Below, piece after piece: positions 11,259-64,000 of a DNA stretch of 64,000 nt. The position numbers and the translations under genes were made by a program. Position 1 is the stretch's first letter; every line of letters starts with the position of its first letter. Location of the stretch: contig CAVSXG010000002.1 of assembly GCA_963731865.1 (NCBI GenBank), positions 1,898,692 to 1,962,691 on the forward strand. The letters run 5' to 3'. The stretch is from an uncultured Chloroflexia bacterium (GTDB lineage Bacteria; Chloroflexota; Limnocylindria; Limnocylindrales; CSP1-4). Below the pieces are notes generated by a model. The model was not told where the DNA came from. It made no database searches and saw nothing but the letters and a program-made list of their open reading frames with translations.

Positions 11259-11474
11259 CCACCGCTCCCTTCTCCGCCAAAGGCGGACAACCACCTGACT
11301 TGCCAGGGCTCAATGTTTAGATCGAAATGGGTCGCCACGCGTCTTCCAGCCAAAGTCAGTTCGCGCTCCTAGCTACCGCACACGATCCAGGCGGCCCGGG
11401 TGGCGATCCCCCTTGAAGCGGCCGCCGGCACTCCCTATCGTCCGCCAAATCGTCGTCGCTCGTGGGAGGTTGGC

Positions 11475-11994
11475 ATGGATTGGCAGAACGCGATCTTCGC
11501 GCCAGGGTGGGTTTGGTCGATGCTCAGCCTGGTCCTGGTGGTCGGCACCCTGGTCGGGTTGTACCGCCAGCTCCTGGCGCAGCACACCCAGATGCAGGAG
11601 GACACGAAGCTCCTCCGCAGCCAGGCGCATTACAACGCGTTGACGCTCTCGCAGCGGGCTCGGGAGTTGCTCATCGAGAACGAGGGCTTCGCGCGGGTCA
11701 TCAACGTTGGCTATCGCGACACCCGAAGCGTTGAGCGACGTCGATTGGGCCAGGTGCAGCAGCTACATGTTCCTGCAGATCAAGCGTGGGAGTACCTCTA
11801 CTACCAGCATCGCGATGGTTCGATCCCGACCGAGTACTGGGTCGGCGCCGAGGACTACTACAGGAACATGGTCGCCAGCAGACCGGGGTACGCCCGCTTC
11901 TGGTCGGGCAACAAGTCATCGTTCGACGAACCCTTCCGCTCCTACGCGGCTCCTGGCGTTCACCAAGGAGCCTGCGCCGACACCGGACCGCTAG
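11475..11994 (+). CDS. N-terminally membrane-anchored hypothetical protein. The 3' end is uncertain.
   Basis: GGGAGG RBS, then MDWQNAIFAPGWVWSMLSLVLVVGTLVGLYRQLL... As sequenced, the frame stays open to 12440 through an R/P/G-rich tail and overlaps the well-supported next gene by about 270 nt. A frame slip near 11945 would end it at 11994 (...LLAFTKEPAPTPDR*). Confidence 0.4.
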
Positions 11995-12171
11995 GGGCGG
12001 ACCCTAAGACCGACCGGGCAGCGTCACGCGGATCCACTGGTTGGTGGGACACCCGCTGTCCCGGCGCCGGCCCAAGCGAACGCGGCGACCACCAGCCCGC
12101 CAGCCTGACACCGCCCTCCGCTCCGGCCCGTTGGGATCCCGGCATACGATCGGTCGATGGGAATGGTCTGA

Positions 12172-12615
12172 ATGACCTCGCAGATGAGCAGCTCGATCAC
12201 GATCGCCCGACCGATCGAGGATGTATTCGCCGTCTTGACCAACGTCGAGAACACCGAGAAGTGGTGGCCGTCGACGGTCAAGGAGTGGTGGACCTCGGAG
12301 CCGCCCCACGGACTTGGGTCCACGCGCCATGCCGTCTCCAGGATCGGCCTGTTTCGTTCAGGGAACGATGCCGTGGTCACCGTCTACGAGCCGCCGCGAC
12401 GGGGCGTCATGAAGGGCACCTCGAAGAACGCACCGTTTGAGGCGACACTTAACTTCCTGACGGTCGAGGGAGGAACGAAGGTTGATGTCGTGATCGCGTT
12501 GTTCCTGCGTGGCCCGGCGAGGCTGGTCGGACCGCTGTTCATGCGCTGGTACCGCGGAAACTGGGAACGCGGCATGCTGAAGCTCAAGCTGATGATGGAG
12601 TCGGGCGAGTTGTAG
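12172..12615 (+). CDS. SRPBCC family protein.
   Basis: MTSQMSSSITIARPIEDVFAVLTNVENTEKWWPSTV... 147 aa. Confidence 0.8.
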   Translation: MTSQMSSSITIARPIEDVFAVLTNVENTEKWWPSTVKEWWTSEPPHGLGSTRHAVSRIGLFRSGNDAVVTVYEPPRRGVMKGTSKNAPFEATLNFLTVEGGTKVDVVIALFLRGPARLVGPLFMRWYRGNWERGMLKLKLMMESGEL

Positions 12616-12796
12616 GTGTCGGCTAGGGATGATCCTCAAGGCGGCGCAACCCTGAATCGATCGCCCTTAGCTGCTCAATGGCACCACAGGTTCTCGCGAC
12701 AGAAGCTTTTGGGTAGGGATCAACTGGCGCATACTCCACCCTTCGGCAGCCTCCGCCCAAGTCACGCCGATCGGCTGTCGTAGAGGGAATGGCCCA

Positions 12797-15533
12797 ATGA
12801 GGCGACGGCTCCACGGGCTGATGGCAGCCCTGGTGCTGCTGACCGGAGTGGTCCAACCGGCGACCGGAATGGTCCAGCCGGTGTCCGCGGCGCCACCCGC
12901 GCCGAAGATCACGATCTGTCACTACGACTCCGTGACCGGCACGTACAGCCGGATAACCATCAGTACGACGTCGGAGTCGATGCACCAGGCGCACGGCGAC
13001 GCCCGCCCAGGTCAGCCTGTCCCGCGCCAGCCCGGGTACGTATTCAGCGCCAGCTGTGTGCCCACGCTCCAAGACACGGACAACGACGGCATTCCCGATG
13101 CCAGCGACAACTGCCCGCTCGTAGCCAACAGCAACCAGCTCAACACGGACGGCGACGCCCAGGGCAACGCCTGCGATTCCGACGACGACAACGACACGGT
13201 CGCCGACGGCTCGGACAACTGCCCGCTCGTGGCCAACACCAGCCAGACCAACACCGACGGCGACGCCCAGGGCGACGCGTGCGACACCGACGACGACAAC
13301 GACACGGTCGCCGACGGCTCGGACAACTGCCCGACGTCGCCAACACCAGCCAGGCCAACCGCGATGGCGATGCCTGGGCGATGCCTGCGACAGCGACGAC
13401 GACAACGACGGCAAGGCCGACGGCACCGACAGCTGCCCGATCGGCGACACCGGCTGGACCTCCAACGCCAGCACCGACCGAGACGGCGATGGCTGTCGCG
13501 ACGCGAGCGAGGACACCGACGACGACGGTGACGGCAAGGCCGACGGCAGCGACGCCTGTCCGCCGGCGACATCGGCTGGACCTCCAACGCCAGCACCGAC
13601 CGCGACAGCGACGGCTGCCGCGACTCGACCGAGGACACCGACGACGACAATGACGGCAAGGACCGATGGCAGCGACGCCTGCCCGGCCGGCGACCTCGGC
13701 TGGACCTCCAACGGCATCACCGATCGCGATGGCGACGGCTGTCGCGATGCCGGCGAGGACGCCGACGACGACGGTGACGGCAAGGCCGATGGCAGCGACA
13801 GCCTGTCCGGCCGGGGATCTCGGCTGGACCTCCAACGGCTCGACCGACATTGACGGCGACGGCTGTCGCGATGCCGGCGAGGACACCGACGACGACAACG
13901 ACACGGTCGCCGACGGCTCGGACAACTGCCCGCTCGTGGCCAACACCAGCCAGACCAACACCGACGGCGACGCCCAGGGCGACGCGTGCGACACCGACGA
14001 CGACAACGACACGGTCGCCGACGGCTCGGACAACTGCCCGACGGTCGCCAACACCAGCCAGGCCAACCGCGATGGCGATGCCTTTGGCGATGCCTGCGAC
14101 AGCGACGACGACAACGACGGCAAGGCCGACGGCACTGACAGCTGCCCGATCGGCGACACCGGCTGGACCTCCAACGCCAGCACCGACCGAGACGGCGATG
14201 GCTGTCGCGACTCGACCGAGGACACCGACGACGACGGTGATGGCAAGGCCGATGGCAGCGACGCCTGTCCCGCCGGCGACATCGGTTGGACCTCCAACGC
14301 CAGCACCGATCGCGACAACGACGGCTGCCGCGACTCGACCGAGGACGCCGACGACGACGGTGATGGCAAGACCGATGGCAGCGACGCCTGTCCCGCCGGC
14401 GAGCTGGGCTGGACCTCCAACGGCGTCACCGATCGCGATGGCGATGGCTGTCGCGATGCCGGCGAGGACACCGACGACGACAGTGACGGCAAGGCCGATG
14501 GCAGCGACAGCCTGTCCGGCCGGGGATCTCGGCTGGACCTCCAACGGCTCGACCGACATTGATGGCGACGGCTGTCGCGATGCCGGCGAGGACACCGACG
14601 ACGACAACGACACGGTCGCCGACGGCTCGGACAACTGCCCGCTCGTGGCCAACACCAGCCAGACCAACACCGACGGCGACGCCCAGGGCGACGCGTGCGA
14701 CACCGACGACGACAACGACACGGTCGCCGACGGCTCGGACAACTGCCCGACGGTCGCCAACATCCAGCCAGGCCAACCGCGATGGCGATGCCTTTGGCGA
14801 TGCCTGCGACAGCGACGACGACAACGACGGCAAGGCCGACGGCACTGACAGCTGCCCGATCGGCGACACCGGCTGGACCTCCAACGCCAGCACCGACCGA
14901 GACGGCGATGGCTGTCGCGACTCGACCGAGGACACCGACGACGACGGTGATGGCAAGGCCGATGGCAGCGACGCCTGTCCCGCCGGCGACATCGGTTGGA
15001 CCTCCAACGCCAGCACCGATCGCGACAACGACGGCTGCCGCGACTCGACCGAGGACGCCGACGACGACGGTGATGGCAAGACCGATGGCAGCGACGGCTG
15101 TCCCGCCGGCGAGCTGGGCTGGACCTCCAACGGCGTCACCGATCGCGATGGCGATGGCTGTCGCGATGCCGGCGAGGACACCGACGACGACGGTGACGGC
15201 AAGACCGATGGCAGCGACAGCTGTCCGGCCGGGGATCTCGGCTGGACCTCCAACGGCTCGACCGACATCGATGGCGACGGCTGTCGCGATGCCGGCGAGG
15301 ACACCGACGACGACAACGACACGGTCGCCGACGGCTCGGACAACTGCCCGCTCGTGGCCAACACCAGCCAGACGGACCTTGACGAAGATGGGATCGGTGA
15401 TGCCTGCGATCCGTCTGTTGCAGCGGCCGGATCTTTGGGCTTAGTGCTGGCTTACACCCGCGCGGATCCAATCCAGGTAAATAATCACGACCTTCTGGGT
15501 CGACTCAATAGAGCAATCGGAATAGCCGCGTAG
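12797..15533 (+). pseudogene. Secreted, Cys/Asp-rich thrombospondin type-3 (TSP3) calcium-binding-repeat protein of about 910 codons. It is split into at least 4 ORFs by at least 7 single-base indels as sequenced.
   Basis: Signal peptide MRRRLHGLMAALVLLTGVVQPATG. It is followed by dozens of DxDxDGxxDxxDNCP.xxNxxQxDxDGD units (e.g. DTDNDGIPDASDNCPLVANSNQLNTDGDAQGNACDSDDDNDTVADGSDNCP). The correct frame hops at about 13335, 13375, 13560, 13657, 13800, 14510 and 14762. Confidence 0.8.
13184..15372 (+). repeat. Tandem macro-repeat with a canonical unit of 708 bp (236 codons), about 3.1 copies, inside the TSP3-repeat gene.
   Basis: The landmark CCAACGGCT recurs at 13832, 14541 and 15250. Spacing is 709 because each interval carries one extra base. 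Copies 13891-14599 and 14600-15308 differ at only a handful of positions. The first copy (13184-13890) is more diverged. Confidence 0.9.
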
Positions 15534-35492: not shown

Positions 35493-36732
35493 CTAGGCGT
35501 CGATCCGTTCGATCACCGTAGCGATGCCCTGTCCCACCCCGATGCACATCGTCGCGAGGCCGTAGCGACCGCCCGTCCGGCGCAGCTCGTGGGCGAGCAT
35601 CGTGATCAGGCGACCGCCGCTCATGCCCAGCGGGTGACCGAGCGCGATCGCGCCGCCGTTAACGTTGACCTTTTCGGGGTCCAGGCCAAGCTCGTTGATG
35701 CACACGATCGACTGCGACGCGAATGCCTCGTTGAGCTCGACGAGGTCGAGGTCGCCGACGGTGATCCCGGCGCGTTCGAGCGCCTTTCGCGTGGCCGGCA
35801 CGGGGCCGATCGCCCATGACCGCCGGGTCGACACCCGCCACAGCCGTGGAAACGACGCGGGCCATGGGTCGCAGCCCGAGGTCGCGTGCGCGGGTTGCCT
35901 CGACGAGCAGGACCGCCGACGCGCCGTCGTTGATCCCCGACGCGTTGCCCGCAGTGACGGTCCCGTTGTCCCGGAAGGCCGGCCGCAACCGGCCGAGCGC
36001 CTCTGCTGATGCGTCCGCGCGGGGGTGCTCATCGCGGGTGACGACGATCGGGTCGCCTTTCCGCTGCGGGACCTGGATCGGCACGATCTGGTCATCGAAC
36101 CGGCCGGCCTCGATCGCCGCCACCGCTTTCTGCTGGGAGGCGAGGGCGAAGGCGTCCTGCAGGTCGCGACCAACCTCCCACCGCTCCGCGACGTTCTCGG
36201 CCGTCTCGCCCATCGAATACGGGTAGTGGAGCTCGGCGAGCTTTGGGTTGAGGAACCGCCAACCGAGCGTCGTGTCCTCCAGCTCGCGCGGCCCGCGATC
36301 CCACGCCGCCGCGGGCTTGGCCATGACGTATGGCGCCCGGGTCATCGATTCGACGCCGCCGCCGATGAACACGTCCCCATCGCCCACGGCGATCGCGTGC
36401 GCCGCCGAGTTGATCGCCTGCAGCCCGCTGCCACACAGCCGATTGAGCGTGAGCCCTCCGACCTCGACCGGCAGCCCGGCCAGCAGCACTGCCATCCGGG
36501 CCACGTTCCGATTGTCCTCGCCCGCCTGGTTGGCGCAGCCGAGCATCACGTCCTCGATCAGACCAGCGTCGATCCCGGACCGGTCGACGACGGCGCGGAT
36601 CGCGGCGGCCGCGAGATCGTCGGGTCGGACGGACGCGAGGGCGCCGCCATATCGGCCGATCGGCGTCCGGACCGCTTCGATGATCCAGGCATCACGGAGC
36701 GGCCCGGTTCGCGTCTCGAGTCACGACGTCAT
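35493..36732 (-). pseudogene. Acetyl-CoA acetyltransferase / 3-ketoacyl-CoA thiolase (PaaJ-like position). It has an in-frame TGA at codon 4 and a frameshift near 35815 as sequenced.
   Basis: MTS*LETRTGPLRDAWIIEAVRTPIGRYGGAL... NRLCGSGLQAINSAA (active-site Cys) ... [21 protein letters not shown]...[12 protein letters not shown]. The start ATG at 36732 forms an ATGA overlap with the upstream dehydrogenase stop. Confidence 0.85.
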
Positions 36733-37820
36733 CGTACGCGGCCTCGGCGTTCCGGGTGGCCGGCGCCCAGGCGAAGCGCGAGCTCGATGTCAGTCGGCGA
36801 CGCGACCCCGTCGGCGACCGCCGCACGAGCCTCGGCATCCACAGCGGTCAGGATCCGGGTGCGGATGGTGTCGGCATCGAGCCGCCCAGGCCCGATCGCG
36901 CTGGCCGGTTCCGTGACGCCCTGTCGCCGACCATCCACGTATCGATAGAACCCGATCCCGGTCTTGCGACCGAGTCGACCCTCCGCAACCATCTCCTCCT
37001 GGATCGGTGACGGTCGCAGGCGATCCGGTCGCCCAAGCGGCTCCCACACCCCAAGGGCTGTTGCGAGGTTGACATCGAGTCCGACCAGGTCCATGAGCTC
37101 GAACGGCCCCATGGGGAACCCTGCGGCGCGCATCGCTTCGTCGATGGCCTCGACCGTCGCCTGTCCGGCCTCCAGGATCCGGAGCGCCTCGATGGTGAAT
37201 GGCCGGTTCACGCGGTTCACGATGAACCCGGGCGTATCGGCGCATCGAACCGCGGTCTTGCCCCAGGCTTCCATCAGTTCGATGGCGCGATCGACGATCG
37301 CGGGCGCAACCGTACGTGGCGTCACGACCTCCACGAGCGGCATGACCGGGGCCGGGTTGAAGAAGTGCAACCCGAGGACCCGCTCACGATGACGGGTCCG
37401 TTCGGCGATCGCAGCGACCGAAATCGCGCTGGTATTGGTGGCGAGCATGACGCCTGGCGGCGCTGCGGCGTCCAGCGCGCCAAAGATCGTTTGCTTCAGC
37501 TCGAGATCCTCCAACGCTGCCTCGATCACGACCTCCGCCTCCGCGCCGATGGCGTCGAGGCTGTGCGCATCGCGCAAGCCCGCCAACCGCCCGGAGACCC
37601 AGTCCTCGATGCTGTCCGCGTCCAGATCGAGACGAACGGCGCGTCGCCGGAGGCCATCGCGGACGCGCGCGCGACCCCGCTCGATGGCGGCTTCATCGAT
37701 GTCATGGAGGACGACCTCGTGGCCGGCCTCGAGCGCGAGCTGGGCGATCCCGGCGCCCATGGTCCCGGCTCCGACCACGCCGACGATCGCGCGCGCGGCG
37801 GCGCCGGATGGCTGGCGCAC
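36729..37820 (-). CDS. paaH: 3-hydroxyacyl-CoA dehydrogenase (PaaH-like).
   Basis: GTG at 37820, 2 nt after the paaD stop. VGVVGAGTMGAGIAQLALEAGHEVVLHDI (Rossmann), LHFFNPAPVMPLVEVV, GFIVNRV. The symbol is given from sequence plus paa-cluster context. Confidence 0.75.
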   Translation of the reverse strand: MRQPSGAAARAIVGVVGAGTMGAGIAQLALEAGHEVVLHDIDEAAIERGRARVRDGLRRRAVRLDLDADSIEDWVSGRLAGLRDAHSLDAIGAEAEVVIEAALEDLELKQTIFGALDAAAPPGVMLATNTSAISVAAIAERTRHRERVLGLHFFNPAPVMPLVEVVTPRTVAPAIVDRAIELMEAWGKTAVRCADTPGFIVNRVNRPFTIEALRILEAGQATVEAIDEAMRAAGFPMGPFELMDLVGLDVNLATALGVWEPLGRPDRLRPSPIQEEMVAEGRLGRKTGIGFYRYVDGRRQGVTEPASAIGPGRLDADTIRTRILTAVDAEARAAVADGVASPTDIELALRLGAGHPERRGRVR

Positions 37821-37822
37821 GA

Positions 37823-38403
37823 TCAGATCGACTTGAAGTGCTCGAACGGCTGGCGGCAGGCCGTGCAGTGGTAGATCGCCCGGCATTGGGTCGGGCCGAA
37901 CAGGTTTTCGAGGACCGTCCGCCGTGAGCCGCAGTGCGGGCAGGGCACGACCGCGGAGAGTTGCAGCAGGACCGGCTCGTCTGGCCGGGCGGCGCCGGGC
38001 GGCGCGAACCCCGCCTCGTGCAGCTTGCGGCGGCCCTCGCCGGTGATCCGATCCGACGTCCAGGGCACCCGGTACCCAAACTTGACGTCGACCGGCCGGC
38101 CGAAAGCGCCGCAGGCGATCTTCGACGGCGCGCGCGGATCAGGTCGAGCGCCGGGACAGCCGACAAACGTGGGCAGGAGCTCCACGCGGATCCCGGTCGC
38201 GTCGACCTCGACCCGTTCGACCATCCCGAGATCCATCACCGACACCATCGGGAGCTCCGGGTCGGGCACGTCCGCGAGCGCAGCGCGAACGGCGGCCGCG
38301 TCGAGCGCCGCGTCGACGACGGACTCGCCGGGCCGGCCAGACCGGGCGGCTGGATCCCCGCCCGGCTACGCGCGATCGAGGTGTGCACCGCGGCCTCGCT
38401 CAC
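37823..38403 (-). pseudogene. paaD: Phenylacetate-CoA oxygenase subunit PaaD (also named PaaJ). Several indels as sequenced.
   Basis: GTGA overlap with the paaC stop. ...VPDPELPMVSVMDLGMVERVEV...LPTFVGCP(ALDLIRA in the alternate frame)...VPWTSDRITGEGRRKLHEAGFAPP...CPHCGS...CTACRQPFEHFKSI. Confidence 0.7.
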
Positions 38404-39170
38404 CACGTCGCTCCCGGGTTCGGCGCTGCGGACCGTGTTGAACTCCGCCCACAGCCAGCGGAATGCCTCGCCGTGGTCGAGCCGGCCCCGCGCCGGGTCG
38501 CGCGCCGATGGCGGCATCGGCAGATCGAGCCCCGCCAGGGTGGGCTCGATCGACAGCCCGCCAGCGCCGTTCGAGCTCGGCCATCGGCGCCAGGAGGATC
38601 CCGGCGTCGATCAGGTCCGCCTCGTCGGGGAGCGGCGCGAACACGGTCGCGGCGTCCGGTCCGAAGCGTCGTGAGCGCGGCAACCAGGCGCGACCGGGCG
38701 ATTCGTCGCCGCCACGGGCCAGCCGATCGAGCCAGATGCCGGCATGCATCCGGTGGTAGCGCTCCTCGCGGACGAGCTTCGCCGACGAGCTCGGCCAGCG
38801 GGGCCCAGCTGCCACCGACCAGGGCATCCAGGCGCACGCCGTCGGCCGTGTCGTACAGGAAGCGGCGGGCGATCGTCATCGCCCAGTCACCACGCCCGTG
38901 GTCGAGCAGCCGGCAATGCCGGTAGGCCGCGGGCTCGCGGTCGTAGGCGAGCGCATCCGGGTCGGTGTCGGTTAGCTCGCCGAGGAGGCCGTACAGCGCG
39001 GCGGCGTGGCCGAGCTCGTCCTGGGCGAGCGAGCTCATCGCGACGTCCTCCTCGAGGAGCGGCGCGATCCCGGTCCACTCCGAATCGCTGAACCCGATGA
39101 CGAACTCGTCATCGGCCATCGACCGGAGCAGCTCGCCCAGGGCGACGGCGGGCAGTGCTGCGACGCTCAT
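38400..39170 (-). pseudogene. paaC: Phenylacetate-CoA oxygenase subunit PaaC (also named PaaI). Frameshifted at least twice as sequenced.
   Basis: MSVAALPAVALGELLRSMADDEFVIGFSDSEWTGIAPLLEEDVAMSSLAQDELGHAAALYGLL... continues in other frames (...KLVREERYHRMHAGIWLDRLARGGDES...) and ends ...PGATW* at 38400. Confidence 0.7.
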
Positions 39171-39489
39171 CGCGAACGCGCCTTTGGCTTCGCCTGGCCT
39201 GATACCTCGCGAGCCGCGGCGAGCTTGTCGCGCATGACGTAGCCGCCAGGTTTCTTGAACGACCGATCGAGCGGCGGCTGCAGAAGGTCTGCGTCGGCGA
39301 GATCGACGATGTCGGCGATCGACGGACGATCCACAGGCGGACGCTCTCCTGGCGGCGTCCGAACAGCTCGCGCGCATAGTGCATGGCAAGGTCGGCGTCG
39401 GGTGCCATGACGCTGCCGCCGTGCTGCATCGGGCCGCCTTCCTTCTCCTGCCGGAAGACCTCCCATGGTTCGAGGGTCGGCGCGGTCAT
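39167..39489 (-). pseudogene. paaB: Phenylacetate-CoA oxygenase subunit PaaB. One frameshift near 39340.
   Basis: MTAPTLEPWEVFRQEKEGGPMQHGGSVMAPDADLAMHYARELFGRRQESVRLWIV | DRPSIADIVDLADADLLQPPLDRSFKKPGGY... ATGA overlap with paaC. Confidence 0.75.
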
Positions 39490-39495
39490 CGCGGC

Positions 39496-40483
39496 TCAGG
39501 CCGCCCTGGGCGCGGCCAGGATCGTGTCGCGAACCCAGCTGGTCTCGGCGCGGGCCAGCCGTCGGAACTCGAGGCGCGCCTCCGACATCGGCCCGTGGTT
39601 GGTGACGACGCGGCGCAGCTCATCCCAGTCGGGCTCGCCGTACCGCCACGTGCCGGTGGTCTCGTCGAGCAACAGCTCCGGGTCCGGGATGACCAGTCCG
39701 AGCTCGCGGATCCGCGGCACGTAGATCGTCAGGAACTCCTGGCGAAGCTCCTCGGACGTCTTGGCCTTGATCCGCCAGTGGAGGTCGCGGTCCTTCTCGC
39801 GCGGCGAGCGCGGGCCGTGCATCTGCATCAGCGGCCCCCACCACCGCTCGAGCGCGTCCTGGATCGCGGCGCGTTGGGCCGTCGAGCCGGTGGCCATGGT
39901 CACGACGACGTCGCGGCCGTGCATGATGTGGACCGATTCCTCCCAGCAGATCTTGCGCATCGTTCGCGCGTATGGCGCGTAGCTGCTGTCGCGGAGGGCC
40001 TGCTGCGGCGACGATCGCCGCGGCGTCGACGAGCCACGCGATCATCCCGACGTCTGCCCAGCCAACCGTCGGGTAGTGAAAGACGTTGTGGAACTTGGTC
40101 TTGCCCGCGAGCAGGTCGTCGAACATCGCCTCGCGTGATTTGCCGAGATCCTCCGCCACGCGGTAGAGCAGCTGCGCGTGCCCCACCTCGTCCTGGACCT
40201 TGGCCGTAAGGGCGAGCTTTCGGCGCAGGGTCGGCGCGCGCATCAGCCATTCACGTTCGGGGAGCACGCCCATCAGCTCGCTGTTGGCGTGCATCTCGAC
40301 GAATCGGAGGACGGCCGTGCGGTACTCGTCCGGCATCCAGTCGGTCGCTTCGACCTTGCCGCCGGCGGTGACGTGCGCCTCGAACAGGGCGAACCGCTCG
40401 TCGTGCGGGAGGTCGGCGTTGAACGCCGGGCGGCTGCGCTCGAGTGGCCCGAGGATCGGCTCGAGCGCGAGCGGATCGGTCAT
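39496..40483 (-). pseudogene. paaA: Phenylacetate-CoA oxygenase catalytic subunit PaaA. One frameshift near 39990.
   Basis: ...FVEMHANSELMGVLPEREWLMRAPTLRRKLALTAKVQDEVGHAQLLYRVAEDLG...FHYPTVGWADVGMIAWLVDAAAIV | ...MRKICWEESVHIMHGRD... These are the di-iron ligand regions of the PaaA family. Confidence 0.85.
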
Positions 40484-41084
40484 GACGGCCCTCTCGGTGC
40501 CTGCACGGCACGAAGCGCCAGGTCCGCGAATGCGTCAGCGATGGCCCGGGACGAGAGTCGGCCGTCCGGCTTGTACCAGCCAACGAGGCCGTTGAGCGCG
40601 GTCAGCAGGAAGGCGGCCGTGGCTGTCGGGTCAACCGGGTGGAAGCGTCCCGTTCATGACCCCGTCGGCGATGACTGTCCGAAAGCGGGCCTCGTAGGCA
40701 TCGCGTCGGGCCGCGATCTCGTCGCGTCGGCTCCCCTGGAGCGCCCGCCACTCGTGGACGAACACGCTCGCCCGCTCGATGTCGTCCGTCACCACGCCGA
40801 CGTGGGCCGCGACAAGCGCAATGAGGTAGACGCCGCAGCCAGAATGTCGCACCACCTGGATCGGCCGTCTCGATCGCCTCGGCGGCCGCCTCGAAGCGGT
40901 CCGCGGTCGTCTCGACGATGGACCAGAGGACATCCTGCTTGGAGGTCACGTGCGCGTACAGGCTGGCCCCCTGGATATCGACCGCGCGCGCAATATCGCG
41001 GACACTCGTCCCCGAATATCCATGCGCGTGAAAGAGGGCGCTGGCGGCGTCCTCGATCGCCTGCCGGCGGGTCGTCTCGACCAC
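40480..41084 (-). pseudogene. paaR: TetR-family regulator at the head of the paa operon (PaaR-like). At least 2 frameshifts as sequenced.
   Basis: GTG at 41084 after GGGAGGA. VETTRRQAIEDAASALFHAHGYSGTSVRDIARAVDIQGASLYAHVTSKQDVLW (TetR HTH). Later parts lie in other frames. The stop forms an ATGA overlap with the paaA start (40483). The symbol is given by position and family. Confidence 0.65.
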
Positions 41085-41393: not shown

Positions 41394-44210
41394 ATGAGCG
41401 CGCCGTTTGTCGGCCGTCAACGCGAGCGCTCCGAGATTTCCGCGCTCGTTCGGCGATCGAGCCTCGATCGAGCGCCCGTTGCTGCCCTCGTCACGGGCGA
41501 GCCAGGCAGCGGGAAAACGCGGCTACTCACCGAGATCCTTGCCGCGCCGCGAACAGCGGGACTCGTTCGCGTCGTCGGCTTCGAACCCAACCAGGCTGTC
41601 CCGCTGGCTGCCGTCGGCGAGGTCATCCGCCTGCTGTCGACCGTCCCCGTCCACGGACCAGAGCCTCGAACGACTGGTGTTCGGTGGCCGCGATCACACG
41701 GCTCGCGCACCCCTCCGGATCTTCGAGGCGGCGCATCGGGCACTCTCCTCTTACGGACCACTCGTGATCGGCATCGACGACCTCCAGTGGGTCGACGATC
41801 AATCACTTGGGCTGATCCACTACCTCCTACGGGCGGCGGGCCCGGCGCACCAGCCCCTGGCCGTGCTCGCCGTCAGTCGCCCGTCACGCGCGGCGACGGG
41901 TTTCCACGCCACGCTCGAGGGCGGCCTCCCGACGGAGCGGCGGATGTTCGTGGACCTTGGTCCGCTGCCCCTCGAGGACGGCCTTTCGCTGGCCCGCGCC
42001 ATCGACGGCACCTTGAGTGAGGCTGCAGCCGCGGCGCTTTGGCGCCGTGCTCGTGGCTCGCCATTCTGGCTCGACGCGCTGGCAAGGAGCGGCGGCGACG
42101 TCGAGCCGTCGGAGCTCATCGCGGAGCGGTTCCGGGCCTTGAGCAGCGATTCTGGCGCCTTGCTCGCCGCCCTAGCCGTAGGGGCGCGCCCATACCTCGT
42201 CGACGAACTCGCCGAGCTGCTCGGATGGGAAGTCGGCCACGTCCGCCAAGCGTCCGCCGAACTCGTCGCTCGGGGGCTCGGTCTTGAGGTCAGCGGCACG
42301 ATCCGGCTCGCCCACGACCTGATCCGCGAGGCTGCAACCGCCAGCCTGCCGGTCAGCGCTCGGCGGCGACTACACGGGCGCGTGGCGGATCGGATCGAGG
42401 CGACGGCCGGGGACGACGTGAAGCTGCTGCGCGAGGCCCTCGACCATCGAGTGGCCGCCGGCCAGCCAACGGCCGAGCTCGCAGTGCGCCTGATCTCGTC
42501 GCCTGGGCGACGCCTGCTCAACGGCGATGACCTTCGACTTCTCGCAGCGATCAGCGACCGGCTTCGAGCCTGGCGCCGCGGCGCGAATCCGGATCGATCG
42601 CGGGCTCGCCGAGCTCGGTGCCGTCATCGGCGAAGTGGAGCTCGCGCTCGAACGCTGGACCCGCGTCAGCGAGCAGACGACCGACGTCTCGGAACGGCGC
42701 CACGCGGAGACTGAAGCGGCCCTGGTCGCGTACCGCTTCGGTCGGCGCGCCGAGGCCCACGAACACCTCGATCGGGCCCGCGACATGCCGGCGTCGAGTC
42801 TCGAGGCGACCGTGCGGCTCGACGCCCTGCAGGCCGATGTCGAGCTGTGGCTCGACCACGAGACGGCGGCGGGCAGTCGGTCTGCCGAGCGCGCGATCGC
42901 CGCAGCCGAGGAGATGGCTTTGATGAGCGGCGGGCTCGAACGGCTTTCGCCTGGAGCGCGTCGCGCGTATCTGGCGGCCGTCGAGGTCGCGATCGATGGC
43001 GCGATGCAGGAGGATCGCGACGGCGAAATCGTCGGCCGGGCCGAGCAATGCGTGCGCGTCGTCCACCGGCCTCGATGACGAGTCGCACATCGCCGCTCAG
43101 ATCCGATCCGCGATGGCACTGCGGACAGTGGCACGCCCTCGAGAAGGCGAGGCGCAAAGTCGACAGGCGTGGGACGCCTCGAAGCGCCTGGTCCTGCCGA
43201 TCCTCACGGTCGAAGCGGGCCGCGGCCTTGCGCGCGTCCTGCGCGACCTGGGCCGACTCGCCGAAGCCCATGCGGTGGCAATCGAGACGAGGGAGCTCGA
43301 GGCGCGGCTCGCCGTCGCACCCAAGCACTGGGGGAGCGCTGCCTCCCTCCGACACATCATCGAGCTCTCGTCCGAGGACGCGGCAGCCGCACTGCGCGAG
43401 CTTCGCCGCGATGCCGCGGCCGAACCGGACCCGCACTACCGCCAGGACCTCCACCTCGCGATCGCCGTCTGGCAGGCGCGCGTCGCCGGCGCGAAGGCCG
43501 CTCGCGAGGTCGAGGCCGAGCTCGGCGCCGCGCATGCCGATGCCGAGCTCGCCCGCTGTCCGCGCCACAGTCTCGGCCTGGCGCTCGCAACCGCCGAGCT
43601 CCTCGCTCGGATCGGGCGCGTCGACGACGCGCGGCGAGCGCTGGCCGATTGGGACAGCCGACCAAGCGCCGGCAGCGTGGGCCGCGACCTGTGGCGGATG
43701 CGCACGGCCGCAGCGATCGAGGCAGCGGCTGGCGACGACGCGGCAGCGGCCGCGATCCTGGAGACCTATGGGCAGGCGCTCGAACGCGCCGGCTTGAACC
43801 TGGAGCTCCTCTGGACTCGGATCGACCTTGGCCGGTGTCTCGCGAGGCTCGACCGCGATCGCGGGGTCGCAGCGTTCACTTCCGCCGCCGAGCTGGCCGA
43901 TGCCTGCGGGGCGGTGAGCGAAGGCCGCCTCGTCGCGCAAGCCCTTCGCGGGCTCGGCGTTCGCGCCTGGCGCCGTGGGGCTGCAACTATTGGAGGCGGA
44001 CTTGCCGGCCTGAGCAAGCGGGAGCTCGAGATCTCGCGGCGCGTGGCCGACGGCGCGAGCAACCGCGAGATCGGCGAGGCGCTCGTCGTCTCCCCGAAGA
44101 CGATCGAGCGCCACGTCACGAACATCCTTGCGAAGGTCGGGCTGCGCAATCGGACCGAGTTGGCTTCGCTGGTCCGATCCGCTTCGGTACGGGATTCGCC
44201 CGATGAATGA
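41394..44210 (+). pseudogene. LAL-type (large ATP-binding LuxR family, MalT-like) transcriptional regulator. At least 3 frameshifts as sequenced.
   Basis: MSAPFVGRQRERSEISALV...VTGEPGSGKTRLLTE (Walker A) ... IDDLQWVDDQSLGLIHYLLR ... TPR-like helices ... C-terminal LuxR HTH LSKRELEISRRVADGASNREIGEALVVSPKTIERHVTNILAKVGLRNRTELA. Frame changes occur near 41650, 42520 and 43070. Confidence 0.8.
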
Positions 44211-60604: not shown

Positions 60605-61374
60605 ATGCGACTCGAGGGCAAGGTCACGATCATCACCGGCGGCGGCAGCGGGATGGGCCGCGTGGCCGCGCAGCTGTTCGCCGGCCAGGGCGCCAAGAGT
60701 CGTCGTCGCCGAGTACAGCGAGGCCGCGGGCGCTGAAACGGTCGAGCTCGTGCGCGGTGCGGGCGGCGAGGCGACCTTCGTGCGGACGGACGTCTCGACC
60801 GAGGCCGATGCAAAGGCATGGTCGACCATGCCGTCGCCACCTACGGGCGACTCGACTGCCTCTACAACAACGCCGGGCGTGATGCCAGAGGCGGACCACT
60901 CCGTGGTCGACACCGACGTCGCGACCTGGGACGCGGTGATGGCGGTCAACGTCCGCGGCGTCTTTCTGGGCTGCAAGTACGCGATCCCGGCGATGATCGA
61001 GGGCGGCGGCGGCTCGATCATCAACATCGCGAGCTTCGTGGCGATCCTCGGCTGCAGCGTGCCCCAGGACGCGTATACGGCCTCGAAGGGCGCGGTCCTG
61101 TCGCTGACCCGCAGCCTCGCCGTGCAGTTCGGGCCAAACGGCATCCGGACGAATGCGATCTGTCCCGGCCCGGTCGAGACTCCGCTTACTGATGGACTGG
61201 CTGCTCAAGGACGAGGCGGCGAAGAAGCTGCGCCTGGCCCGCAACCCGACCGGCCGGTTCGGGAAGCCTGAGGAGATCGTGCAGATGGCGATCTATCTCG
61301 CCTCCGACGAGTCACGCTGGACCAACGGCGCGTCGCTCGTCGTCGACGGCGGCATCACCGTCAACTACTTCTGA
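60605..61374 (+). pseudogene. SDR-family oxidoreductase. About 4 indels as sequenced.
   Basis: MRLEGKVTIITGGGSGMGRVAAQLFAGQGAK | VVVAEYSE... | MVDHAVATYGRLDCLYNNAG | VMPEADHS...YTASKGAV...ICPGPVETPL | LMDWLL...ASDESRWTNGASLVVDGGITVNYF*. Indels lie near 60697, 60815, 60885 and 61187. Confidence 0.8.
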
Positions 61375-61389
61375 GGAACGAGACCCGAC

Positions 61390-62216
61390 ATGACGGAAGG
61401 ACTGCCCGAGGCGGCGACAGCGGCGGATCGCGATCGGCATCGACGTGGGCGGCAGCGGGATCAAGGCCGCCGTCGTCGACATTGACGCGGGACGGTTCAT
61501 CTCCGAGCGGCTGCGCGTGGCGACGCCCGATCCCGGCGACGCCCGATGCCGTCATCGCCTCGATCGGCCGGCTCGTCCGGCGTCTGGCAAAGGCGAGCGG
61601 CCTGGGATCCGCCACGCCGGTCGGGGTCGGGCTGCCCGGGGTGACCCTGGACAACACGCTCAAGTCTGCCGCCAACATCGATGCGGGCTGGATCGACTTC
61701 CCGGTCGTCGAGCGGCTGCGCAAGGCGACCGGTCGACCGGTCAGCATCGTCAACGACGCCGACGCGGCGGGGATCGCCGAGATGCGGTTTGGGGTCGGGA
61801 GGGAGCAGGCGGGCGTGGTCATCTTCCTGACCCTCGGGACCGGCGTCGGTTCGGGCGTGTTCGTCGACGGGATCCTCGTCCCGAACACCGAGTTCGGCCA
61901 GATGGAGATCCGCGGTCGAGCCGCCGAGCGCCGATCGGCGGCGGCGGCCCGCGTCCGTCGCGGCCTGTCGTGGAAGGCCTGGAGCCAGGACCTCGACGAG
62001 CACCTCGCATCGGATCGACGAGCTCATGTGGCCGAACCTGATGATCCTCGGCGGCGGCGTCAGCAAGAACGCCGACCGGTTCATCCCCCGCCTCACCGTC
62101 CGCTGTCCCGGTCGTGCCCGCGCAGCTTGCGCAACGACGCCGGGATCATCGGCGCCGCGATCGTGGCGGTCGAGCGGTGCGACGGAGGTCGAACCAGCCC
62201 GCGTCGGCCGACCTGA
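61390..62216 (+). pseudogene. ppgK: ROK-family glucokinase, polyphosphate-glucokinase-like. Several frameshifts as sequenced.
   Basis: [13 protein letters not shown] | [35 protein letters not shown] | ...VGVGLPGVT...[14 protein letters not shown]...[10 protein letters not shown]...EFGQMEI... | [18 protein letters not shown]... The symbol is tentative. Confidence 0.7.
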
Positions 62217-62286
62217 TCGCCTCGTTGCCGGCTCCGACCGATCGCAGCGCATCGCGAGGGTCGGTGACCGGATGCGCGCCCTGATA

Positions 62287-64000
62287 ATGGGCGCGCCGAT
62301 GTACGACCTGCCGACCATTCGACATTGTCCTGACCGAACAGCTCGAGTTCATCCTCGGGCTCGGCGGCGCGGTCGCTGCAGCCCTCCTCGGCGGCGCGAT
62401 CGCCATCCGCCTGCGCCAGCCGGCGATCGTCGGGCTACCTGCTCGCGGGCGTCCTGATCGGCCCGTTCACGCCGGGTTTCGTCGGCGATGTCGAGCAGAT
62501 CGCGGCCCTGGCCGACGTCGGTGTCGTGCTGCTGCTGTTCGCCCTGGGCGTCGAGTTCTCGATTCGGGAGCTCCGCGCCGTTGGACGAGTGGCGCTGCCC
62601 GGCGGGATCGCCCAGATCGCGCTGATCGTCGCCGCCGGGATGGCGCTGATGGTGGGCCTTGGCTCCGGCTGGGGCGGCGCCTTCGTCGTCGGCGCCTGCC
62701 TGTCGATCTCGTCGACCCTCGTCGTGCTCAAGTCGCTGATCGACAGCGGCGAGATCGACAGCCTCCACGGCCGCGCGGCGATCGGCTGGTCGATCGTCCA
62801 GGACATCGCGACGATCGTGTTCATCGTCGCCCTCCCGTCGCTGACCGGCGGCGACGCCCTGCTCCCGCTGGCGTTCGCCCTGCTCAAGGCGGCGATCTTC
62901 CTGGCGCTGGCCTACGTCCTGGGGACGCGGCTGCTGCCCTGGCTGTTCGGCTACGTCGCGCGCTCGGGATCGAGCGAGCTGTTCCTGCTCGTCGGTCTTC
63001 GCCACCGCGCTGCTGACGGCGTTCGTGTCGAGCGCGATCTTCGGCCTGTCGCTCGCGCTCGGGGCGTTCGTCGCCGGGGTCGTCGTCTCCGAGTCGGACC
63101 TGTCGCACCAGGCGGCGGCCGAGGTCACGCCGTTCCGGGACCTGTTCGCCGTCCTGTTCTTCGTCTCGGTGGGCATGCTGGTGGACCCGACGGCCCTCGT
63201 GGCGGACGCTCCCGCTGATCGGCGCTGCTCGTCGCGATCGCCGTGGTCGGCAAGGGCGGCGCTGATCGCGTTGCTCGGGCCGCGCGGCCGGGTTGCCGAT
63301 CCGCTCGGCGCTCCTGCTCGGCGCCGCGCTCGCGCAGGTCGGGGAGTTCAGCTTCATCCTGGCCGAGGACGCCCTGGACCTCGGGATCCTCGACGCGCGG
63401 CCGTACAACCTGATCCTGGGGACGGCCGTCGTGTCCATCCTCCTGACCTCGGGCGTCCGCGAGGTCGCCCGGCGATTGGCGATGCGATCGGAACGGCGTG
63501 CCGACCGGGCGAGCGAGGCCTCGGCACAGGTCGGATGCTTCGGCCGACGAGCCGACGGGGATCGAGGCCCAAGCGGGCGGCCCAGTCGCGCGTGCCCCGG
63601 CCCGGATGGGTGCCGGCGCCCGGTGGCGAACGGAGCGGGCGATCGACTGAGGACGACGAGGCCCGACGCCCGACGGTCGTCGTCCTGGGCGCCGGGCGCG
63701 TCGGCCAGGTCGTGGCCCAGGCCGTGCGGCACCCGCGGGTTCCGCTGCGTCGATCGTCGATCGCGACGCACGCAGCTCGGCGGCCGTCGAGCGGCTCGGC
63801 ACGGTGAACGTGTTCGGCGACGCCGCCAACCCGGAGATCCTCAAGCGGCTGGGGCTCGACCGGGCGCGGATCCTGATCATCGCGATCGGCGATCCGTTGA
63901 CCGCCCGGCTGGCCTCGGAACGCGCGCTGCGGATCAACCCGCGGCTGTCGATCGCGTCACGCGCGCGCGGGCGGCGCGAGGTCGAGGCCTGCGCGGGATC
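62287..64000 (+). pseudogene. Kef-type (CPA2) cation:proton antiporter with a C-terminal TrkA-N/RCK domain. Multiple frameshifts; the 3' end lies beyond the window.
   Basis: ...QPAIVG(Y)LLAGVLIGPFTPGFVGDVEQIAALADVGVVLLLFALGVEFS... ISSTLVVLKSL... LGAFVAGVVVSES... then ...VVVLGAGRVGQVVAQAV...VFGDAANPEILKRLGLDRARILIIAIGD. Frame changes occur near 62330, 62440, 63000, 63215 and later. Confidence 0.8.

Follow-up and report, generated by a model that had tools for sequence, protein, structure and literature searches.

Seven frame changes in a macro-repeated thrombospondin type 3 gene of an uncultured Chloroflexota bacterium are probably assembly errors

Introduction

Does a bacterial gene whose reading frame is broken seven times, twice by the same extra base in sister repeat copies, record the death of a gene or the errors of an assembly? 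The question is raised by the gene at positions 12797-15533, plus strand, of a 64,000-nt stretch of contig CAVSXG010000002.1 (assembly GCA_963731865.1) from an uncultured soil bacterium of the Chloroflexota; this whole stretch is called the window below, and positions are counted from its first letter. The gene encodes a protein built largely of thrombospondin type 3 (TSP3) repeats, which are themselves arranged in near-identical macro-units. A sequence-only reading of the locus had offered two explanations for the base common to two copies, namely that the lesion is real and was copied with the repeat or that repeat-collapsed polishing propagated it, so that an artifact was already one of its options. 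We argue here that the seven single-base insertions or deletions (indels) quite probably arose as consensus errors when a metagenome was assembled from long-read-type data without short-read correction and that the gene is intact in vivo. They are most likely errors because the same assembly breaks rpoC, contains more than 1,000 frame hops elsewhere, and has a hop at 40006 that short-read contigs contradict, and because the TSP3 gene is otherwise undamaged.

Results

Seven Single-Base Indels in an Otherwise Undamaged Gene

The gene contains approximately 20 TSP3 repeats, eight of the classical 36-aa type (DDDNDTVADGSDNCPLVANTSQTNTDGDAQGDACDT) and twelve of a 41-aa type with the pattern CPxGDxGWTSN..D.DGDGC (DDDGDGKADGSDACPAGDIGWTSNASTDRDGDGCRDSTEDT). 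Two of the former and four of the latter make up a macro-unit of 236 codons (708 nt), and alignment of the copies confirmed the unit length and the copy number of about 3.1 that had been read from the sequence. Copy A (13079-13785) is homologous to the next two copies from approximately 13190 onward (13190-13785). Copy B (13786-14494) is followed by copy C (14495-15203), which is 99.4% identical to it, and an intact 235-codon unit can be delimited at 13804-14509. The partial copy D, from 15204 to approximately 15411, consists of one 41-aa and one 36-aa repeat. Copies B and C differ over 709 nt by three substitutions and one indel, which bears out the earlier suggestion that the second and third copies arose by very recent duplication.

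No single open reading frame (ORF) spans 12797-15533, which is covered by a chain of overlapping plus-strand ORFs in three frames (12797-13531, 13666-14562, and 14559-15533). At least seven breaks had been counted between 13335 and 14762; alignment of the macro-repeats together with three-frame translation puts the number at exactly seven, and every one is a 1-base indel when compared with the sister copies. Four lie in copy A. At s1 (13335-13336), a GG run has one G fewer than in B and C, so that GACGGTCG reads GACGTCG and the frame passes from 0 to 2, and at s2 (13374-13378), there is a net loss of one base (TTTGG reads TGGG; the frame passes from 2 to 1) where GCCTTTGGC in B and C reads GCCTGGGC. 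A CC in place of the CCC of B and C shifts the frame from 1 to 0 at s3 (13560-13561), and an extra G, giving GG for the G of B and C, shifts it from 0 to 1 at s4 (13660-13661). In copy B, an extra C at s5 (13802-13803) gives CC where A and D have C (GACAGCCTGTCC) and moves the frame from 1 to 2. The same extra C recurs at the homologous position of copy C, s6 (14511-14512), moving the frame from 2 to 0, and copy C also carries an extra T at s7 (14763), with CAACATCCAGCC against CAACACCAGCC in A and B and a change from frame 0 to frame 1.

These indels apart, the coding sequence is well preserved. There are no in-frame stops in the TSP3 frame, and every Asp, Cys, Gly, and Trp motif position is intact. 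The homologous part of copy A differs from copy B by approximately 10 synonymous and 10 nonsynonymous changes, all at variable positions and none at a D, C, G, or W motif position, giving a ratio of nonsynonymous to synonymous substitution rates (dN/dS) of approximately 0.3 (hand count, with synonymous and nonsynonymous sites at approximately 1:3.6). Because there is no stop, the motifs are intact, and the A/B dN/dS is low, the repeats have diverged under purifying selection; the changes between B and C are too few for judging constraint. This state of preservation bears directly on the alternative that the locus is a recent, real pseudogene, some or all of whose indels are present in the DNA, since seven frameshifts unaccompanied by a nonsense codon or a damaged motif are unlike a decaying gene.

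The Assembly Breaks Genes Throughout the Genome

The assembled genome comprises 3.76 Mb in 7 contigs and has a marker-gene completeness of 78.7%. Its rpoC gene (G000:C1:178857-183029, outside the window) matches TIGR02386 in five pieces lying in three frames, with at least three frame changes, whereas in the congeners G006, G010, and G024 rpoC is a single open frame of 1,533-1,541 aa. Because a cell cannot live with rpoC in three frames, the assembly contains 1-base frame errors.

The extent of such errors was estimated with a frame-hop detector in which codon log-odds, trained on the long ORFs of the genome itself, define maximal-scoring segments in each stop-to-stop frame, and the segments are then tiled. 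A hop was called where two segments on the same strand but in different frames abut and no stop closes the first frame within the next 45 nt. An untiled version of the detector was rejected because it included shadow frames in its count (coverage 1.5x). The detector is conservative, and it found 1,115 frame hops genome-wide, or 29.6 per 100 kb, compared with 0.9 per 100 kb in a 170-contig short-read congener (G006; 115 kb analyzed) and 7.5 per 100 kb in a 4-contig one (G024; 160 kb analyzed). The hops are patchily distributed, with a variance of 18.6 against a mean of 4.5 per 20-kb bin. Extra bases account for 870 of the 1,115 (78%) and missing bases for the remaining 245, an excess that runs counter to the bias of real bacterial mutation toward deletions. 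We found no enrichment of long homopolymers at the hops, and k-mer enrichment around 605 tightly placed hops yielded weak signals only (CCGGGC, 43 occurrences against 15.9 expected). All seven lesions of the TSP3 gene are 1-base indels in runs of one to three bases, the same kind as the genome-wide hops. For a single 1-base indel in such an assembly, error is thus far more likely than mutation, and a pseudogene would have to be singled out where rpoC and over 1,000 further places are broken in the same way.

One hop within the window, outside the TSP3 gene, is contradicted directly by independent data. At 40006, exactly the position of a hop called by the detector, short-read contigs from related soil populations (run X7) are one base shorter than the assembly. 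Once this base is removed, a 328-aa protein can be read from the minus strand that spans positions 4-263 of the 263 positions of PF05138 (PaaA_PaaC) in one stretch. Among the short-read contigs of runs X7 and X2, further length differences are seen, of one base at 43060 and two bases at 39314, the contigs again being the shorter. That short reads contradict a hop elsewhere in the window counts against a real pseudogene at the TSP3 locus.

The generality of these hops also bears on the proposal that the frame changes are functional, either as programmed ribosomal frameshifting or as phase variation of a surface protein through repeat slippage. Genes for surface repeat proteins are a classic setting of phase variation, and the indels do lie in short C or G runs. 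Contingency loci, however, use long homopolymers or short tandem repeats, whereas the runs here are of one to three bases, at seven sites and with changes in both directions; no slippery heptamer is common to the sites; and rpoC and paaA are affected by the same kind of hop. We regard functional frame changes as extremely improbable.

Completeness values were compared across 24 genomes of the same genus (G001-G024). Few-contig congeners mostly have the lower values, 59-87%, with three at 91-95%, and among ten many-contig congeners (110-540 contigs), four are at 91-93% and six at 65-82%. This pattern would be consistent with marker genes broken by frameshifts. It also hints that frameshift-rich long-read metagenome-assembled genomes are perhaps common in the genus.

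Within the window, detected hops are clustered, with seven on the minus strand at 35812-40848, a plus-strand pair near 41652 and 42499, and a further seven on the plus strand at 61175-63988; an array of seven paralogs at 22.3-30.9 kb contains none. A 346-aa ORF at 11400-12440 begins with what looks like the real N-terminal part of a membrane protein and continues as Arg/Pro-rich, out-of-frame sequence overlapping an SRPBCC gene (12172-12615), and may be another frame problem.

The Extra C Common to Copies B and C

The sequence GCGACAGCCTGTCC is found at 13795 and 14504, and GCGACAGCTGTCC, which is without the extra C, occurs solely at 15214. The observation that the same C is present in two copies (13802 and 14511) and absent from the third therefore stands. 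The identical flanks of at least 40 nt attributed to both sides do not, as identity between B and C extends for 28 nt on the left and 51 nt on the right, and the first difference in copy D, a G/A change, lies 17 nt upstream of the site rather than approximately 14 nt.

The shared C is the sole point that sustains a real lesion. If it arose once, before duplication of B and C or before gene conversion of a dead unit, one event plus a duplication would economically explain its presence in two copies with identical flanks and its absence from D, and the mere three substitutions that separate B from C indicate that such a duplication would be very recent. The pseudogene explanation gains further from the lack of an ortholog in 24 congeners or elsewhere, which marks the locus as a dispensable accessory gene of a kind that is often lost, and from the atypical codons of its C-terminal tail. 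Set against the undamaged motifs and the breakage of genes throughout the assembly, we nevertheless consider a recent pseudogene unlikely. That the shared C in particular is really in the DNA, the dead 709-nt unit having then been duplicated or homogenized by gene conversion, we judge to be unlikely as well. The argument that an indel common to two copies speaks against sequencing error carries little weight in an assembly with 1,115 hops, a split rpoC, and a hop contradicted by short-read contigs.

Two origins of the shared C are conceivable if it is an error. The same stochastic miscall, favored by its context, may have occurred in two of three identical contexts, or the two 99.4%-identical copies may have been polished with shared reads, or even assembled in the wrong number. 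The last case shades into a separate explanation, in which the repeat is misassembled and the true number of macro-units differs, either because B and C are two renderings of one copy or because copies have collapsed, the shared C deriving from the same reads. The near-identity of B and C and their common lesion fit this proposal, their four differences are close to the error level of the assembly itself, and tandem 709-nt units are hard to polish. A 2.2-kb tandem repeat is, however, normally spanned by long reads, so that its copy number is usually right, and there is no positive sign of a wrong number here, no reads having been available for the repeat. Misassembly of this kind is very unlikely, and it overlaps with the explanation by consensus errors, as both make the lesions artifacts.

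Several observations weigh against consensus error as the source of all seven indels. At none of the seven sites was coverage found in public reads, contigs, or proteins (nine soil or rhizosphere runs and protein collections were searched). In the nine runs, the TSP3 gene is matched solely by short Logan unitigs, which derive from the TSP3 repeats of a mixture of organisms, and its unique flanks have approximately zero depth. We therefore infer the artifactual status of the sites from the general state of the genome. A base is missing rather than added in three of the seven, compared with the 78% of extra bases genome-wide, and seven indels in 2.7 kb is approximately three times a rough estimate of the genome average, yet within the observed patchiness. 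Around the site, copy D is identical from -16 to +50 or beyond but does not have the extra C; an error dictated by the local context alone should have appeared in D also. Genome-wide, the hops are not marked by any strong motif, and because the k-mer signals around them are weak, the GACAGCCTGTCC context is not demonstrable as a systematic error hotspot. The hop detector is home-made, it caught two of the seven known sites in the TSP3 gene, and its controls are small.

The Gene and Its Product

The ATG of the gene is preceded at a distance of 7 nt by a Shine-Dalgarno-like GAGGGA (12784-12789, plus strand, as are all features of the gene described here). A promoter and terminator scan of the locus returned nothing exceeding chance. 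The first 31 codons (12797-12889) are predicted by eye to encode a Sec-type signal peptide, with an MRRR start, a hydrophobic core, and a putative cleavage site VSA|A. Within the signal-peptide coding region, a 21-nt tandem duplication (12841-12881; period 21, 2.0 copies, 90% matches) doubles a heptapeptide, TGVVQPA/TGMVQPV. The signal peptide is followed by a 60-aa Cys-containing N-terminal module (KITICHYD...ITIS...H...HGD; 12890-13072) without a close ortholog, then by the approximately 20 TSP3 repeats, which make up approximately 90% of the mature protein, and by a C-terminal tail of 42 aa (15405-15533).

Stitched together with X at the junctions, the pieces give a read-through product of 912 aa with 24.7% Asp, 42 Cys, and a computed isoelectric point (pI) of approximately 4, values that match the extremely acidic, Cys-rich protein of approximately 900 aa that had been anticipated. 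The Asp-rich DxDxDGxxDxxD motifs and the two Cys of each repeat are read in the stitched translation, and their positions are invariant in a 20-sequence alignment.

The last 42 codons are AT-rich and rare, unlike the remainder of the gene, with a codon usage that resembles that of noncoding DNA. The true C terminus may lie elsewhere, or the 42-aa tail may be read-through into noncoding DNA. No sorting signal was recognized in the tail, and in Pfam the C-terminal 50 aa matched no sorting signal, the sole match being a weak TSP_3 edge. A PEP-CTERM-like reading of DPSVAAAGSLGLVLAYTRA was rejected, being unsupported by Pfam and set in the noncoding-like codon usage of the tail. The long minus-strand ORFs over the repeats (e.g., 13140-14492) are antisense shadows of the GAC-rich repeats and not genes.

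An Ordinary TSP3-Repeat Family Member with No Ortholog in 24 Congeners

The read-through protein matches Pfam TSP_3 (PF02412) at 212.1 bits, against a gathering cut-off of 25, in 11 stretches, and a six-frame search of the genome with TSP_3 gave ten matches. Among PDB sequences, phmmer matched only thrombospondin-1 and -2 and COMP (thrombospondin-2, E 8e-35; COMP, E 5e-34). An AlphaFold2 model of the intact unit at 13804-14509, built on the 20-sequence alignment, has a mean predicted local distance difference test (pLDDT) score of 85.7, with 93-96 over the 41-aa repeats, and is almost without secondary structure. In Foldseek searches of the PDB with this model, every match was to a thrombospondin, to COMP, or to the Capnocytophaga OmpA TSP3 segment (5wtl), with a best E value of 6.6e-11 and a probability of 1.0; the global template modeling scores (TM-scores) are low, 0.15-0.25, as expected of a flexible wire. 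Pfam, the thrombospondin and COMP matches, and Foldseek thus agree with the sequence-only reading of an exoprotein with a signal peptide and nearly nothing but TSP3 repeats, and the results together support a secreted, extremely acidic, Cys-rich TSP3-repeat protein.

That reading had also called such a stand-alone architecture unusual in bacteria, which does not hold. When 5.8 billion proteins were searched with the read-through sequence, 6,396 of the 8,000 scored candidates (500-1,600 aa) matched, and PF02412 is the sole Pfam domain in at least 24 of the 120 matches listed. Several of the listed matches, from Planctomycetes, Acidobacteriota, Myxococcota, Chloroflexota, and archaea, are annotated as thrombospondin type 3 repeat-containing protein. 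A dedicated NCBIfam model even exists for one protein of this build, MtsC; it is the best NCBIfam match to the protein described here, at 279.7 bits, under the curated cut-off of 350. Within the prokaryotic TSP3-repeat family, the protein is thus unremarkable; it is lineage-specific, and its macro-unit has been amplified recently.

What sets this gene apart within the family is an N-terminal module with only distant relatives, the lack of an ortholog in the 24 congeners, and the near-identical macro-units. The N-terminal 179 aa found no ortholog among the 24 congeners, residues 1-92 searched alone found no match, and scans of metagenome and genome contigs gave matches of 33-51% only, to a module of 35-55 aa. 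One such distant relative of the N-terminal module, at L037 (294-1172), is 51% identical over 35 aa. When 282 aa of the product, with the site of the shared extra C inside them, were used as the query, nothing near-identical was found in the protein collection, the best match being 84% over 29%.

Two observations concern these relatives. The KITICHYD..G.Y..ITIS...H module, for which Pfam has no model, recurs at the N terminus of the L037 protein, an unrelated, Cys-rich, secreted metagenome protein of low G+C content. The match in congener G011 (L010, G011:C2, approximately 97 kb) is a different TSP3 protein, with an N-terminal domain, approximately six classical repeats, and a PKD-like C-terminal part, and it seemingly is also split between overlapping frames.

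Discussion

If the seven indels are consensus errors, a single in vivo intact gene would encode a Sec-exported, extremely acidic TSP3-repeat protein of approximately 910 aa, whose 236-codon macro-unit has undergone very recent tandem duplication. If its repeats behave like the solved TSP3 repeats, each of them would wrap Ca2+ ions with its DxDxDGxxDxxD motifs and be locked by an intrarepeat disulfide, and the result would be a long, rigid, Ca2+-dependent extracellular rod. We infer that the product is probably a species-specific surface or matrix/adhesion protein; for repeat proteins of this kind, a Ca2+-dependent role in adhesion or matrix is plausible.

The main value of the locus is as a caution. 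A broken frame in this assembly is not evidence of gene loss, nor is a lesion common to two of its repeat copies evidence that the lesion is real. Frameshifts in this genome, and in congeners with few contigs and low apparent completeness, should be treated as errors until confirmed at the read level. As for the gene, prokaryotic surface proteins with TSP3 repeats are already very numerous; it contributes one more that is specific to its lineage and opens no new question. Were the shared C to prove real, the locus would be a snapshot of tandem-repeat turnover in the absence of selection on the product, following frameshift knockout of a species-specific surface-protein gene.

Comparison with Known Systems

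The closest structural models for the repeats are thrombospondin-1 and -2 and COMP (PDB 1ux6, 1yo8, 2rhp, and 3fby), to which the 36-aa repeats can be aligned at every residue of the pattern DxDxDGxxDxxDNCPxxxNxxQxDxDxDGxGDACD and whose crystal structures show a wire free of secondary structure, like the model predicted here. Unlike these proteins, the bacterial protein is a stand-alone array with no EGF domains, lectin-like C-terminal globe, or coiled coil, and 12 of its 20 repeats are the 41-aa variant with an inserted GW(T/S)SN turn; its Ca2+ binding is predicted.

Among bacterial proteins, Capnocytophaga gingivalis OmpA (PDB 5wtl; Foldseek E 3.8e-5) and Myxococcus TraB have the same kind of TSP3 motif, with the Ca2+ binding and intrarepeat disulfide that are predicted here, and Ca2+ binding by the bacterial OmpA TSP3 structure is described as disulfide-dependent (Dai et al. 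2017, Cell Calcium 66:78, as cited in PMC12045341). In OmpA-like proteins and TraB, a few repeats form a linker between a β-barrel and an OmpA domain, whereas here approximately 90% of the mature protein is repeats; no OmpA domain (PF00691) was found in the read-through protein, for which Pfam gives TSP_3 alone. Closer in build is MtsC, the MYXO-CTERM protein of Myxococcus xanthus cell-cell cohesion (NCBIfam NF047638, an equivalog model), which like the protein described here is secreted and consists essentially entirely of TSP3 repeats. Unlike MtsC, this protein has no MYXO-CTERM sorting signal and comes from a different phylum.

The 41-aa repeat itself, as CPxGxxGWxSNxxTDxDxDGCxDxxEDxDDDNDG, also occurs in metagenomic proteins such as P0002, P0005, P0023, and P0065, where a signal peptide precedes a long tandem array of it. 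Proteins of this type are 44-50% identical over 69-84% of the query, and relatives are annotated as Candidatus Poseidoniales archaeon. P0002-type proteins begin with a large β-propeller-like region and end in a transmembrane anchor followed by a cytoplasmic tail; the protein described here, unlike them, has a 60-aa N-terminal module, no recognizable anchor, and near-identical 236-aa macro-units.

For the frame changes, the relevant comparison is with Nanopore-only genome and metagenome assemblies (PMC9262707), in which many single-base indels fragment genes and completeness is depressed despite contiguity, as in the present genome. That study (Sereika et al. 2022) stresses indels in long homopolymers; the hops described here lie in runs of one to three bases, and 78% of them are insertions. 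As in those Nanopore-only assemblies, at least one site in the present assembly is corrected by short reads.

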